The notes under the pieces: model-generated
Seen by the model: only the letters and a program-made list of their open reading frames with translations
What the model was told of the DNA's origin: nothing
Databases searched by the model: none
Made by a program: the position numbers and the translations under genes
Shown: piece after piece, positions 2,339 through 43,055 of the stretch
Position numbering within the stretch: the stretch's first letter is position 1
How the letters are laid out: every line of letters begins with the position of its first letter
Source of the DNA: Enterobacteria phage Kha5h
DNA length: 64,000 nt
Strand: one strand, 5' to 3'
Sequence record: NC_054905.1

Positions 2339-3247
2339 TTAAAGGTCATTCAAAAGGTCATCCAGGTCCGTGTCATCAGCACTAGATGAACTACCAGAGC
2401 TTGAGCTCATAAAATCATCTTCAGTTTTTGTATTGAAGTCATCAACATTGAATGCATCCAAATCATCAGCAACTTTATCAGCTTTCTTAGCAGCAGTTGC
2501 AGCGGCACCGCCCATCACAGCAGTTCCCATGACTTGACCGAATTTAGTGCTCAGTTCTTCAAATGATTTGAATTTATCTTTAGAAGTCATTTCAGAAAGG
2601 TCAACCATTTGTTCGAACAGTTCTTTCTGGAAAGATTCATCATCAATGTTTGGAATCGCAGATTGATTCAGGAATTTAGATTCGTCGTAGTTACTAAAAC
2701 CAGAAACTTGTTTAACTTTCAGTACAAAGTTAGCACCTTCCCACGGACAAGTTACATCAACCGGAGTTTCACCCATTTCAACATCAACTGCAATCATTGC
2801 ATTGATTTTATCCCAGATTTTCTTACCGAAACGGTATTTAAATACTTTACCTTCGTTTTCTGGAGCAGCTGGGTCTTTTACTACAAGAATGTTAGCCCAG
2901 TAAGAAGTTTTACGTTTAACAAGACCGTACTCTTTATTGTCAGTGTTGTACAGATCATTTTTACTGATGTACTGACATACTGGGCAAGAATCGTAATCAC
3001 CGTGGGTAGATGAACAGTTTTCAATATACCATTTACCATTTTTCTTGAAACCGTGATTTACAAGAATTGCGAATGGTGCTTGTTCATCATTTTTAGACGG
3101 AAGAAAACGAATTACTGCTTGACCGTTACCCGCATTGTCGAGTTTCAGTTTCCACTCGCCTTTATCTTCAGAAGAAAAACCGCCTTTATTTCCAGCCAGT
3201 TTAGCCATTTGTGCAGCGAGTTCAGCAGTAGATTTACGTTTAAACAT
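2339..3247 (-). CDS. 32: single-stranded DNA-binding protein gp32
   Basis: 302 aa; [19 protein letters not shown]... matches T4 gp32 from memory, acidic C-terminus. Confidence 0.97.
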
Positions 3248-39498: not shown

Positions 39499-39836
39499 TC
39501 ACAAGATGTAGATGAACAACTAGAATCACAAGAACTTCCGCATGAATCGCCCGTCCATACATGAACAGGAACATTAGTATCATATGAATCAGAACTAGAT
39601 CGTGTATTCTGTGTGTTAGATGATGTAGTAGGTGTTGACCAGCGCCAAGGATTTTTATAATATTCTTGGGCTTCTTCATAAGTCATAGTAACTGCTTCTA
39701 CTGTTCCATCTCCCATATAAACATACTCAACTACAGTTAAAGGAAGGTAGTCATTTGAAATAGGAACTACACCTTCCCCAGGAGTCGTAGAGAAAAAATC
39801 CGTAAAGAAACTTTTAAACCAATTAAAGATAAACAT
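39495..39836 (-). CDS. hypothetical protein with Ser/Thr-rich linker and Cys-rich C-terminal tail (113 aa)
   Basis: ...[20 protein letters not shown]...[18 protein letters not shown]. Confidence 0.5.
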
Positions 39837-40042
39837 TACAAAAAGCCTCTCTTAAATTCGACTTGCTTCTCGCCATAATCATATCGAATCTCTGCATTAA
39901 ATTCGACAGAACCATCTGCGTACATCATAAATGAATGTACAACAACTTCTGTAGACCATGGCTGTAGTTCATATTTCTTCATTACATGCCGTGAAATGAT
40001 AATATCTAAATCTTCATTTGGTTTAATCCAGCGATTTAACAT
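39836..40042 (-). CDS. hypothetical protein (68 aa)
   Basis: track ORF downstream of an early promoter. Confidence 0.5.
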   Translation of the reverse strand: MLNRWIKPNEDLDIIISRHVMKKYELQPWSTEVVVHSFMMYADGSVEFNAEIRYDYGEKQVEFKRGFL

Positions 40043-40068
40043 AGTGCTCTCCTCTATAAGATAATTCT

Positions 40069-40098
40069 ATTATACCATACTCATTTTGGAAAGTAAAC
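40069..40098 (-). promoter_or_regulatory. phage early promoter (GTTTAC, 18 nt, TATAAT)
   Basis: minus-strand GTTTAC 40093..40098, TATAAT 40069..40074. Confidence 0.55.
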
Positions 40099-40113
40099 CG
40101 TTTAAATGAAAAA

Positions 40114-40133
40114 AGGACTCCCGAAGGAGTCCT
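40114..40133 (-). terminator. UUCG-tetraloop hairpin after soc
   Basis: aggactcc cgaa ggagtcct. Confidence 0.5.
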
Positions 40134-40140
40134 TGAATTA

Positions 40141-40377
40141 TTAACCACCTATTTCTGTAGGCGTAAACATTGCAGCATTCTTAGTTTTCCAGTCAGCTGC
40201 ATCAGAAACTACAGTAGAATATGCCGCCTTTTCAGAAGGAAAGGTCTGATAATAAGAATCTGCAATACGATGCTCGTTAGAATAGATTTCAAATGGAACA
40301 GAAACTTCCATACCTTTAACTTCTTTGCCTTCACCTGCTGGATGAGTAAAGGTCTTGATGTTAACGAAACCACCCAT
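40141..40377 (-). CDS. soc: small outer capsid protein Soc
   Basis: 78 aa; ...YQTFPSEKAAYSTV... resembles T4 Soc. Confidence 0.75.
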   Translation of the reverse strand: MGGFVNIKTFTHPAGEGKEVKGMEVSVPFEIYSNEHRIADSYYQTFPSEKAAYSTVVSDAADWKTKNAAMFTPTEIGG

Positions 40378-40411
40378 AATAAACTCCTTTATTGTTTAAT
40401 TACAAGTGTAT

Positions 40412-41248
40412 TTATAAACCATTTTCAAACCTCTTTATCATATTTATATAGTTTTCATCGGGATAACCTAGACTAACTGCTAACTTTCTAAAATTGACAT
40501 ATTTAGGTTTGTTGTTATTAATCCATAATTCTCTAAGCTCTTTTTCATAATTCCATTTAAGTTGATTTCTGCGTGCAGTTTTGCTTAAAGTTTTTCCTTT
40601 AGCTTTTAAAGCTTTTTCGGATGATTGTTTTAATTTTTGAATATTTAAAACTTCTTCTATAGATAAATTATTTTCCTTTGAATACCTTATGCAAAAATCT
40701 TTTACTACGGCTATTAGGCAATTTTTGTGAGTACCTAAAATTTCTGGGTTATTTTCTTCAACTAAAATTCCCCAATATCTTCGGTAGCGAGGCATATCCC
40801 TTGAAATCCAGTCATTATACCAAAAATCAAAGTTGGAATACATGAAAGATTTTCTTTTGCGAAGAGTATCTTGGTTTATCCATTGCTCACGTTTATCAGC
40901 CCATAACTTAATAGTAAAGTCTTTCTCTAAGTCAGAAAGCTTCTTAAATTGCGAGCTATTTACTGAGGTCATTCTCTGGAATGCATTCAGCAATCCAAAT
41001 CTTCCAGTTGAACATAAGAGATAGTGAACATATATGTGTTGATATATTGGGAGATATACTCTATTCCAAGGATATATTTTAAAATCACTATACTCAGGAA
41101 ATGCGCATTTAGGAAGTATATGATGGGCTTCTGTTTTAGATTTAATGTGAGTGTTTAACTTATACTTATCTATAATTTTTAAGTACTCATCTAAAAGTTC
41201 CCATTGCGGGAACTTTTCTTTAAGAGCAGATTTGAAATTAATATCCAT
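40412..41248 (-). CDS. putative HNH-family homing endonuclease
   Basis: 278 aa from ATG 41248; EAHHILPKCAFPEY...NRVYLPIYQHIYVH fits an HNH motif, basic C-terminal half; start overlaps the 3' end of gene 56. Confidence 0.65.
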   Translation of the reverse strand: MDINFKSALKEKFPQWELLDEYLKIIDKYKLNTHIKSKTEAHHILPKCAFPEYSDFKIYPWNRVYLPIYQHIYVHYLLCSTGRFGLLNAFQRMTSVNSSQFKKLSDLEKDFTIKLWADKREQWINQDTLRKRKSFMYSNFDFWYNDWISRDMPRYRRYWGILVEENNPEILGTHKNCLIAVVKDFCIRYSKENNLSIEEVLNIQKLKQSSEKALKAKGKTLSKTARRNQLKWNYEKELRELWINNNKPKYVNFRKLAVSLGYPDENYINMIKRFENGL

Positions 41249-41756
41249 TATCTTGACGTTCAAAATTATGTTTGTTCTTCAGATAATAAAGTTTAAAGAT
41301 TTCTTCAGCCGTAAGACCGAGACCTTGGAACATGTTCAGAACGAAATGAAGAATATCAATCATTTCGAATTTAATTTCCAACTGGTCTTGTGGAGACAAA
41401 TCAGTAATTAAAGTTTCACGACGTTCACCATGTTGAGCTTTCCAAGGCTTCCATACAGCAGATGCATCTTTTTCGCCATTGCTCATACCACCAAGAGAAG
41501 TCAATAGTTCGCGGAATTCATCATCAATATAATCTTTCTGATTACGCAGCCAATCAACAACTTCACCCGCAGTAGCCAAATCATCAGGATGACGGTTATA
41601 TTCAGGTTTATCTTTAGCTAAACGAACCTGAAGAGATTTCTGCATATCAAGCATAACTTGCAGCGGGTCTTTTTCATCACCGAGAATATCCCAGTATTCA
41701 TTTTGAGCTTTATCAGCGCCTTCAATCAGTTGACTACATTCGTTGAAATGTGGCAT
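41238..41756 (-). CDS. 56: dCTP pyrophosphatase gp56 (MazG-like)
   Basis: 172 aa, sequence and position. Confidence 0.88.
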   Translation of the reverse strand: MPHFNECSQLIEGADKAQNEYWDILGDEKDPLQVMLDMQKSLQVRLAKDKPEYNRHPDDLATAGEVVDWLRNQKDYIDDEFRELLTSLGGMSNGEKDASAVWKPWKAQHGERRETLITDLSPQDQLEIKFEMIDILHFVLNMFQGLGLTAEEIFKLYYLKNKHNFERQDNGY

Positions 41757-41829
41757 GTTATTTTTCCTTTCAATTCATGGGTTAGTAGATTAATTATACA
41801 ATAAATATATAAAGCAATAAGGAGGACAT

Positions 41830-42030
41830 ATGGTACAAAAATTAATGGCACTTGTTAATGCCATAAAAGGTAATAAAAAGCGTATAGCTTTTACTATTTC
41901 TGCTATGGTAGGAATTTTACTCTGGAACTTTATTCTATCACCTGTTGCAATTGCGCATGGTATTAATATTCCAGTAGTTACTCTTGATACATTTGTAGAT
42001 TTAGCATTTGCTTTAGTTGGGTTGATTTAA
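41830..42030 (+). CDS. small hydrophobic protein (66 aa) on the opposite strand to the surrounding early genes
   Basis: strong SD AAGGAGG 7 nt before ATG; two hydrophobic segments; AT-rich TAAATATATAAAG upstream. Confidence 0.45.
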   Translation: MVQKLMALVNAIKGNKKRIAFTISAMVGILLWNFILSPVAIAHGINIPVVTLDTFVDLAFALVGLI

Positions 42031-43055
42031 ATCTTAGCATATTTAGATAGCCGCATTTTAGCCATCAACCCCTGGGCAATATTATTTTTCATATATTCCA
42101 TAATTTGTTCAGGGGTTGCACCTTCCTTTCTAATCATATCATTGACATCTTTTGATTTCCAGGGAGATTTATCCCAAAACATAACCCTTTCTCCTGCATC
42201 AACTAATTTAGTCATTCGCTTAATAGTGTCAGGATGACGAGGTTCATTATCTAAAACCCACACACGTCTATCTTTAAATGGAACAACTTCTAGGTCTAAT
42301 TGACCACCCGTAATAGCTATACCATTTTCAATAAAAAGTGAATCTATAGGTCCTTCTAGAACATATACATCACCATCTTTAACTCGTTCGACTCCATAGA
42401 TTTTTGTTGCTTCAGGATAAGCTTTGATGGTGATATATTTTTGAGGAGCATCTTTCTTTAATGCACGTCCTTGAAAAGACTCAGCTTTTCCATTAGCATT
42501 ATAAATTGGAATAACAAGACGAGGCTCAGAAATTTCCTTTTTGTATGTTCCTGGTGCTATGCTATTAACTAATTTAGGCCATTCGGTTGTAAACCAAAGA
42601 TATTTCCATTTATCCTTTGGAATACAACGAGCTTTTACATATTTTATAATTGCATGGTCTTCCGCCAGTTTATCTAATCGAACACATGACGGAAGAGATT
42701 TAATTATTTTCTTCTCAGGTTGTTTAGGAAGTTCTTTAGGTTTTTCTACTGGACGACTTTTACCTTTTTCTTTTCTTATTTCAAAGATATACTCACGATA
42801 TAAATCAGGTTCAAACTCCTTTAAATATATTCCGATTGGTGCATGATAGTTACAGTTATAACAATGAATATTTCCTTCATTATTATCACCATAATACCAT
42901 CCACGAGCTTTATTCTGGTCGGTTTTTGAATCTCCACAAACAGGACATCTAAACCGTAATTTAAAAGTTGAACTATTATTTACTTGTGTGAATTTAGGTA
43001 AATGAGCTAATGCACGGTATGCAAACTCATTATCAATCCAAGGTATTGATGACAT
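42027..43055 (-). CDS. 61: DNA primase gp61
   Basis: 342 aa; zinc-ribbon CPVC...CYNC and Toprim region. Confidence 0.95.
   Translation of the reverse strand: MSSIPWIDNEFAYRALAHLPKFTQVNNSSTFKLRFRCPVCGDSKTDQNKARGWYYGDNNEGNIHCYNCNYHAPIGIYLKEFEPDLYREYIFEIRKEKGKSRPVEKPKELPKQPEKKIIKSLPSCVRLDKLAEDHAIIKYVKARCIPKDKWKYLWFTTEWPKLVNSIAPGTYKKEISEPRLVIPIYNANGKAESFQGRALKKDAPQKYITIKAYPEATKIYGVERVKDGDVYVLEGPIDSLFIENGIAITGGQLDLEVVPFKDRRVWVLDNEPRHPDTIKRMTKLVDAGERVMFWDKSPWKSKDVNDMIRKEGATPEQIMEYMKNNIAQGLMAKMRLSKYAKI

Follow-up and report, generated by a model that had tools for sequence, protein, structure and literature searches.

Introduction

The slot between gene 56 and soc, held in phage T4 by segF (formerly gene 69), is the classic intron-less case among homing endonuclease sites. 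Here we describe the same slot in Enterobacteria phage Kha5h (record NC_054905.1), of which a stretch of 64,000 nucleotides (nt), hereafter the window, was analysed. In this phage the slot contains a different open reading frame (ORF), referred to below as the HNH ORF or HNH gene, which is probably a functional homing endonuclease gene, free-standing and of the Mob type known from T4.

SegH and Hef reportedly replace mobC and mobE at fixed T-even intergenic sites (described by Sandegren et al. in 2005), so that there, too, different endonuclease families would alternate at one T-even intergenic site. The gene segF overlaps gene 56 by 11 bp, and re-initiation or scanning, which keeps expression low, has been proposed for it (PMC2988022). 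Both segF and mobE are described as promoterless genes that overlap the upstream ORF, with a hairpin or terminator within the 5' part of the coding sequence and a downstream promoter at the 3' end (PMC2988022), and the regulatory layout predicted for the HNH gene matches this description. Besides the slot, T4 segF shares with it the start inside gene 56 at ATGGATATTAA with an 11-nt overlap, the stop within TATAAATA, a 5' coding hairpin, and a non-catalytic part that is distantly related. It differs in its nuclease domain, a GIY-YIG domain unrelated to HNH, and in that its cutting of T2 gene 56 has been shown experimentally, whereas the HNH protein is known from sequence alone.

Two other groups are closer in the catalytic domain. 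Among the T4 proteins MobA to MobE, of which MobD, MobC, and MobB are the nearest, we find a homologous N-terminal domain with the same H-H...N...H...H motif, and mobA, mobC, and mobE resemble the HNH gene in being free-standing, promoterless, and overlapping with the upstream gene (PMC2988022). The differences are a longer loop between His-His and Asn, another insertion site, and no NUMOD match in the HNH ORF. The "g030c"-type HNH-NUMOD3 endonuclease (found in fPS-2, and labelled MobE in IME08) has the HNH N-terminal domain and the C-terminal module and also abuts gene 56; it lies, however, directly on the upstream side of that gene, has 216 amino acids (aa) and a NUMOD3 linker, and is absent from the window.

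Mobility of the HNH gene

The window is a T4-like (Tequatrovirus) genome with about 97% identity to several Tequatrovirus records. Its minus strand carries, in this order, the primase gene 61 (42027..43055), gene 56, the HNH ORF, and soc (Table 1). A mechanical call places the HNH ORF at 40412..41263 (-), with a TTG start and 283 aa, and its first ATG, at 41248, gives a protein of 278 aa that begins with MDINFKS. An earlier interpretation without database searches, the sequence-only reading, had already proposed a free-standing HNH homing endonuclease between soc and gene 56. Pfam and PHROG identified both neighbours as expected, and the 278-aa ORF contains the predicted HNH-like motif, EAHHILPKCAFPEY...NRVYLPIYQHIYVH, at residues 40-75. 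The T4 locus and Table 1 of PMC2988022 agree with its statement that T4 carries segF at the same site, and the site is indeed used by a different endonuclease family, as the catalytic domains (HNH and GIY-YIG) are unrelated.

The HNH gene is mobile, judging from its distribution, its borders, and its discordant conservation. We found it in about 29 phage records (at least 80% identity), in all of them directly after gene 56, while its flanks are present in hundreds of T4-like genomes that lack it. Comparison of the soc-56 junction among T-even genomes, which the sequence-only reading had suggested, showed that elsewhere the slot contains soc.2 and soc.1, two small ORFs (PhiZZ6, SA20RB, KMB23, and T2), segF (T4 and 67 other records), or, in some other T4-like phages, nothing at all. 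With soc.1/soc.2 or nothing in the slot of other phages, "recombination hotspot", the term used in the sequence-only reading, is a fair description.

The borders of the cassette can be established to the base. Homology to the endonuclease-free PhiZZ6 runs at 97% up to 41278 and is back at 95% from 40416 (BLAST), and the cassette in between contains the last 40 nt of gene 56 together with the HNH ORF. Its left border lies within gene 56; on the right, the border coincides with the first base of TATAAATA, the late promoter of soc.

Across genera, a block of high identity extends from ~41300 to ~40430. Klebsiella phage SmallBear has 97.3% nucleotide identity to the window in the HNH gene, against 77% in gene 56 and 65% in soc; the corresponding values are 91.9, 80, and 65% for KM16 (Moonvirus) and 85.1, 72, and 81% for DK-13 (Gaprivervirus). 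At 85-97% identity over five phage genera, against 65-81% in the flanks, the gene has spread horizontally, and its phylogeny is discordant with that of the flanks; a Dhakavirus also has a copy, which is frameshifted. Patchy distribution, sharp borders, and a gene more conserved than its surroundings are in keeping with the free-standing homing endonuclease that had been proposed.

The Dhakavirus genome, vB_EcoM_005 (our loci L036 and L056; L036 2062..3733), has an unusual arrangement. It contains two adjacent gene 56-like ORFs, one 56% identical and the other 93% identical and covering residues 39-172, with a 45-residue fragment similar to the HNH N terminus between them and the frameshifted HNH gene after them. 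The primase gene is also fragmented in this record. The arrangement could be the product of a botched or illegitimate homing event, or of sequencing errors.

Nuclease domain and family assignment

Comparison with the T4 Mob proteins supports a place for the HNH ORF among the free-standing HNH homing endonucleases of the Mob type. Six residues (H42, H43, P46, N62, H71, and H75) are invariant in an alignment of 104 relatives of the N-terminal domain, and the five His and Asn residues align with the HH..N..H..H of T4 MobB/C/D. By analogy with other HNH enzymes, His43 would act as general base and Asn62 as the structural Asn, with His71 and His75 as metal ligands. The ORF matches PHROG 655 ("homing endonuclease", 5e-33) and PHROG 12434 ("HNH endonuclease", 5e-10). 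A profile of its N-terminal domain gives 42.4 bits to T4 MobC, 39.0 to MobB, 38.1 to MobD, and 39.5 to the g030 endonuclease of fPS-2, the maximum among 1000 shuffles being 6.0 bits. The tblastn search retrieved mobC, MobE, and "Mob-like" genes in many T4-like phages, with the mobC of PST at 42% identity (E 1e-11).

Relatives are numerous, 713 at E<=1e-3 in a HMMER search of 1.84 billion representative proteins. Residues ~4-140 and ~200-276 retrieve different protein sets in HMMER, which indicates that the protein is modular. The AlphaFold2 (AF2) model of the N-terminal domain has a predicted local distance difference test (pLDDT) score of 93.6 and a predicted beta-beta-alpha topology. The scan of IMG/VR with the HNH ORF gave one locus only, and a word-index search for homologous proteins, limited by its word index, gave only 3 matches. 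Proteins identical to the HNH ORF product are already in GenBank (fPS-2, vb_GEC_SH_GT, and others) as "HNH endonuclease" or "homing endonuclease", labels that were evidently assigned by similarity.

The nearest full-length paralogue family has ~30% identity over 274 residues and is another free-standing endonuclease gene. In PP01 (L057 1486..2340) it is found between 46.1 and gene 46, and also in ~12 other Tequatroviruses; T4 has no endonuclease gene in that slot.

C-terminal module

The sequence-only reading had also assigned a basic DNA-binding module to the C-terminal half, and this was borne out in part. The basic character is clear (isoelectric point 9.6 for residues 106-278, with 34 K+R against 23 D+E), while DNA binding is plausible by homology to MobD and SegF and by the predicted three-helix fold. 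The prediction has pLDDT >90, with helices at 235-244, 250-259, and 268-277, and the module presumably binds DNA. Its motif is also found in T4 MobD and, in weaker form, in SegF, as well as in the g030-type endonuclease; the module has 49-52% identity to that of g030 and ~40% to that of MobD. The "HEase" model of PADLOC matches residues 224-274 at 3.6e-5. We found no match to NUMOD1 or NUMOD3 in the HNH ORF, and NUMOD3 is present in 11 of 60 of its relatives.

The relationship with SegF in this part of the protein is at the level of the family, as far as sequence comparison goes. A profile-profile alignment (hhalign) pairs SegF 72-196, the stretch after the GIY-YIG domain, with residues 104-252 of the ORF (probability 90.6%, E 1.3e-6), which fits the label "hybrid" given to SegF in the 2010 review of Edgell, Gibb, and Belfort (PMC2988022). 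BLAST against T4 SegF detects only a 26-residue C-terminal match (E 0.069) and no N-terminal similarity, so that no GIY-YIG relationship was found. With the C-terminal profile, two SegF homologues score 16.3 and 13.3 bits, but T4 SegF scores 7.4 bits, a value within the shuffle range; tblastn with the C-terminal half of SegF fails to retrieve the HNH ORF. On these last two results we rejected a specific kinship to the DNA-binding half of SegF, and the C terminus is nearer to g030 and MobD than to SegF.

Start codon, hairpin, and promoters

The ATG at 41248 is located 8 nt before the gene 56 stop codon (TAA, 41240..41238), and the 19 nt on its 5' side (AATTTTGAACGTCAAGATA) contain no GGAG, GAGG, or AGGA, as expected from the absence of a Shine-Dalgarno sequence noted in the sequence-only reading. 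A small AU-rich hairpin, CAUAAUUUUGAACGUCAAGAUAAUG at 41246..41270 (-), pairs the endonuclease AUG with upstream bases and could mask the start codon. It is exclusive to the endonuclease-linked gene 56 end and hence also occurs in T4 segF.

Within codons 11-19 there is a more stable hairpin (Table 1), whose 101-nt context folds at -23.6 kcal/mol (z -4.3), a stability reached by 0 of 200 shuffles. None of the five other copies that were folded or aligned has a change in the stem. The fPS-2 record has the hairpin annotated as a terminator, and in T4 segF a terminator hairpin rich in GC occupies the equivalent position (folding; PMC2988022). In ACG-C40 (L006 ~2404..2408, corresponding to window 41203..41207) the loop is AUUGC, the reverse complement of GCAAU, with the stem arms kept and Q15-W16 changed to L15-R16; this looks like a flip between the arms of the inverted repeat.

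At the other end, the stop codon of the HNH ORF (TAA, 40414..40412) falls within the late promoter TATAAATA of soc, which is annotated as such in SA20RB. The window contains 6 copies of perfect TATAAATA. A second one near this site, at 40441..40448 (-) inside the end of the HNH gene, is 32 nt upstream of the soc late promoter; we rejected it as an embedded late promoter, since a synonymous change removes it in fPS-2, SmallBear, KM16, and DK-13 and it is therefore probably a chance occurrence. The Rfam scan of 39500..42500 found nothing near threshold.

Proposed mechanism and alternatives

The protein would consist of an N-terminal HNH (beta-beta-alpha-metal) domain, a long helical linker, and a C-terminal three-helix module of the MobD/SegF type. 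We infer the following about its enzymatic activity (a nick or a double-strand cut), where its target lies, and what part the hairpin and translational coupling play. Without a promoter or ribosome-binding site of its own, the gene would be transcribed by read-through from gene 56, and low-level translation would come from ribosomes that, after terminating on gene 56, start again at the ATG that precedes its stop by 8 nt; the hairpin in codons 11-19 probably lowers expression further. Its stop codon lies within the late promoter of soc, so that the cassette occupies the interval and leaves both neighbours undisturbed. During mixed infection, the enzyme would nick or cut an allele that lacks the gene, at or close to the 3' end of gene 56, and recombinational repair off the carrier genome would copy in the 861-nt cassette, displacing soc.2/soc.1 or another occupant of the slot. 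The cassette's own variant of the gene 56 end would shield the carrier.

Several observations count against a functional homing endonuclease of this kind. Pfam gives no match to the HNH ORF even at E<=1, so its curated HNH profile did not confirm the assignment, and sequence searches of PDB with the single protein and two family profiles returned spurious matches only. The 5' hairpin fails a terminator scan, with just four U after its GC-rich part, and has no covariation, as the stem never varies; for these two reasons we rejected it as a canonical terminator, and the attenuating role given to it above is an interpretation. In the literature, our search found no experiment or paper on this gene. 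Finally, strong purifying selection would also fit a domesticated, non-nuclease role.

The Pfam result, which had been the expected confirmation of the HNH assignment, has a plausible explanation. The loop between His-His and Asn has 18 residues in the subgroup of the HNH ORF (FPEY...PWN; HHILPKCAFPEYSDFKIYPWN in the ORF itself) and 12 in T4 MobB/C/D (HHIIPRCMGGTDDKTN in MobB), and this longer loop accounts for the miss. Among the relatives, 2-4 of 60 match HNH models; in T4, MobB (22.5 bits) and MobC (27.6 bits) pass the PF01844 cutoff of 21.4 bits in precisely the aligned HH...N stretch. The assignment thus holds through PHROG, the MobB/C/D profile, the invariant H-H-N-H-H residues, and this transitive link to Pfam, although not by a direct match. 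For annotation, this means that the Mob subgroup of the HNH ORF escapes Pfam detection.

A defunct or domesticated relic, which once homed and no longer cuts, is an unlikely alternative. Such a gene could be kept because a deletion would take with it the gene 56 end and the context of soc's late promoter, or because the protein has become a DNA-binding regulator. Since the stop codon is part of that promoter and the cassette includes 40 nt of gene 56, an imprecise deletion would indeed be harmful; T4 carries a defunct endonuclease, I-TevIII (PMC2988022), and the vB_EcoM_005 copy is frameshifted or truncated. That copy is, however, the only one of the eight examined that is not intact. All copies and the 104 relatives retain the five residues of the catalytic motif, and the ratio of nonsynonymous to synonymous substitutions (dN/dS) is 0.07-0.11 in every pair from five genomes, even at a dS of 0.87, over the full length and in the nuclease domain too, which indicates strong selection on the protein and no decay. 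Copies with 97% nucleotide identity across genera, between flanks of 65-77%, point to a recent horizontal transfer, for which either an active element or a helper is required. Intact copies, low dN/dS, and 713 relatives also make it clear that the ORF is not a chance reading frame.

We consider it quite improbable that the gene is chiefly a weapon in competition between phages, one that damages gene 56 of co-infecting relatives and excludes their markers, with its own spread as a by-product. At this site, SegF excludes the gene 56 markers of T2 (PMC2330249; PMC2988022), the presumed target gene 56 is required for the synthesis of hydroxymethyl-C DNA (PMC2993671), and an intron endonuclease is reported to mediate interference competition between phages (PMC11620839). 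Sequence data cannot tell a weapon from homing; clean cassette borders and the replacement of soc.1/soc.2 are nevertheless what homing predicts, and these data contain no sign of a fitness gain for the carrier. A conserved non-mobile phage gene that merely resembles nucleases is extremely improbable, since, for all its intactness, purifying selection, and shared orientation and operon with its neighbours, the gene occurs in ~29 records only against the hundreds of T4-like genomes with its flanks, its slot elsewhere holds unrelated genes or nothing, and its phylogeny departs from theirs.

The gene 56 end and its relation to segF

The functional homing endonuclease gene that we favour appears to travel with a distinctive end of gene 56. 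The last 53 nt of gene 56 in the window differ from PhiZZ6 at 16 positions and from T4 at 0, while the preceding 450 nt have 0 differences from PhiZZ6. Identity with T4 extends over the last 69 nt; elsewhere, T4 gene 56 differs at 7-14 bases per 30. The consensus of the 3' end in 43 endonuclease-free loci is ...AAAAATGCTGAGAACTTTGCTCGTCAAGACCGAGGTTATTAA, against ...AAGAACAAACATAATTTTGAACGTCAAGATAATGGATATTAA in the HNH-linked variant, and the encoded C termini are AENFARQDRGY (the PhiZZ6-type end) and KHNFERQDNGY, respectively. Every HNH copy, in all five genera, carries the variant end.

T4 segF uses the same ATG as the HNH ORF, both proteins beginning with MDI, and has its stop in the same TATAAATA, so that the HNH gene and segF have a junction in common. 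The SegF homologues of six other phages lack the variant end, their gene 56 products ending in AENFARQD[N/R]GY, KANFERQDHGY, or VENFARQDNGY, and two of these six homologues (L042 and L046) begin with MAI. In two "empty-site" phages, gp56 ends in QHNFERQDNGY and is coded with other synonymous codons, which argues that the identity between T4 and the window is due to descent and not to convergence.

The shared start codon and 40-nt stretch of gene 56 point to direct succession. As the variant end is found in every HNH copy and is absent from the SegF homologues of other genera, the T4 lineage probably once held the HNH gene. On the simplest reading of these comparisons, the 40-nt end would be part of the HNH cassette, and a crossover at or near ATGGATATTAA would have let segF take the place of the HNH body in the T4 lineage. 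The two genes would then have occupied one landing pad in succession, with a 40-nt "adapter" end of gene 56 in common, a proposal based on seven HNH junctions and seven segF junctions that we make tentatively and rate clearly below an even chance. The adapter may provide a start codon to whichever endonuclease follows and may also be a cleavage-resistant allele.

Near the slot, the 3' end of gene 56 is the only sequence common to all types of recipient. Together with the presence of the variant in every HNH copy, this makes it the best candidate for both the target and, in its variant form, the resistant allele, and we consider the chances of this about even. Against it, the left junction may be merely the nearest block of homology for crossover and not the cut site. 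Should the HNH enzyme recognise the common form of the gene 56 end, genomes of the T4 type would be immune to it, while SegF may still cut the window phage, given its non-T4 gene 56 body; the contest between the two selfish nucleases would then be asymmetric.

The body of gene 56 (41291..41740) has at least 3 sharply distinct allele types (window/PhiZZ6, T2/KMB23, and T4), shuffled among close relatives and with up to 19 differences per 30 bases around 41381..41440. KMB23, otherwise among the genomes closest to the window, has another allele. Such strong mosaicism is as expected beside endonuclease landing sites.

Table 1. Features of the gene 61-soc region discussed in the text (window coordinates)
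Feature	Position	Strand	Basis or remarks
soc (small outer capsid protein), downstream host gene	40141..40377	-	Pfam Soc 9.4e-19; PHROG 1715
Late promoter of soc (T4 type, TATAAATA); right cassette border	40409..40416	-	Alignment of five phages
Probable Mob-type HNH homing endonuclease gene	40412..41248	-	ORF of 278 aa plus stop; PHROG 655
Mobile cassette, 861 nt in place of gene 56 end + soc.2 + soc.1 (410 nt) of PhiZZ6	40417..41277	-	BLAST
Three-helix module, residues 226-277 (W..ELW..KP..GYP..NY..I..F), presumed DNA-binding	40418..40573	-	Predicted structure
N-terminal nuclease domain, residues 1-105	40934..41248	-	
HNH catalytic motif, His42-His43 ... Asn62 ... His71 ... His75	41024..41125	-	Alignment; matches MobB/C/D stretch
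RNA hairpin AAAAGUUCCC-GCAAU-GGGAACUUUU, codons 11-19, possible weak terminator/attenuator	41193..41217	-	Folding
11-nt overlap ATGGATATTAA, endonuclease start inside gene 56 end, no Shine-Dalgarno	41238..41248	-	Sequence
Endonuclease-linked variant of gene 56 3' end, supplies ATG, candidate resistant allele	41238..41277	-	Comparison with PhiZZ6 and T4
Gene 56 (dCTPase), upstream host gene, presumed target	41238..41756	-	Pfam dUTPase_2; PHROG 173, NTP pyrophosphohydrolase

Neighbouring regions

At the other end of gene 56, the start of the gene and the 5 nt before it (41725..41761) form a patch of ~37 nt, ATAAC ATGCCACATTTCAACGAATGTAGTCAACTGAT, from which gp56 begins as MPHFNECSQ. The patch is identical in the window, fPS-2, and SmallBear and differs in PuKrd, PhiZZ6, T4, T2, and KMB23 (ATA ATGGCATACTTTAA...). 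In fPS-2, a second endonuclease gene, g030c (HNH-NUMOD3), ends exactly at this patch, and neither the window nor SmallBear contains g030c. The patch may be a travelling "immune" patch or the scar of a second endonuclease beyond gene 56.

Between gene 56 and the primase gene 61 there is an ORF for a hydrophobic protein of 66 aa (41830..42030, plus strand), conserved as "hypothetical" in PhiZZ6, KMB23, fPS-2, and SmallBear and with no match in PADLOC. The same interval holds dam (DNA adenine methylase) in T4, T2, and ACG-C40, a gene that the window phage does not have there, and further endonuclease genes in other phages.

Significance

When T-even phages co-infect a cell, homing endonuclease genes bring about localized gene conversion between them and the exclusion of markers. 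The HNH gene is an ordinary kind of element with unusually clear borders, and the present analysis adds the base-level borders of the cassette, a gene 56 end that travels with it, and evidence that the HNH gene and segF succeeded each other. The locus adds a second, catalytically unrelated nuclease family at the segF slot, delimited to the base and including 40 nt of an essential neighbour. The apparent polymorphism KHNFERQDNGY/AENFARQDRGY at the end of gp56 would be part of a mobile element and not ordinary divergence. The locus also offers a candidate target, the 3' end of gene 56, and a natural pair of competitors, the HNH gene and segF, useful for understanding how selfish nucleases displace each other and how "immune" alleles of host genes arise.

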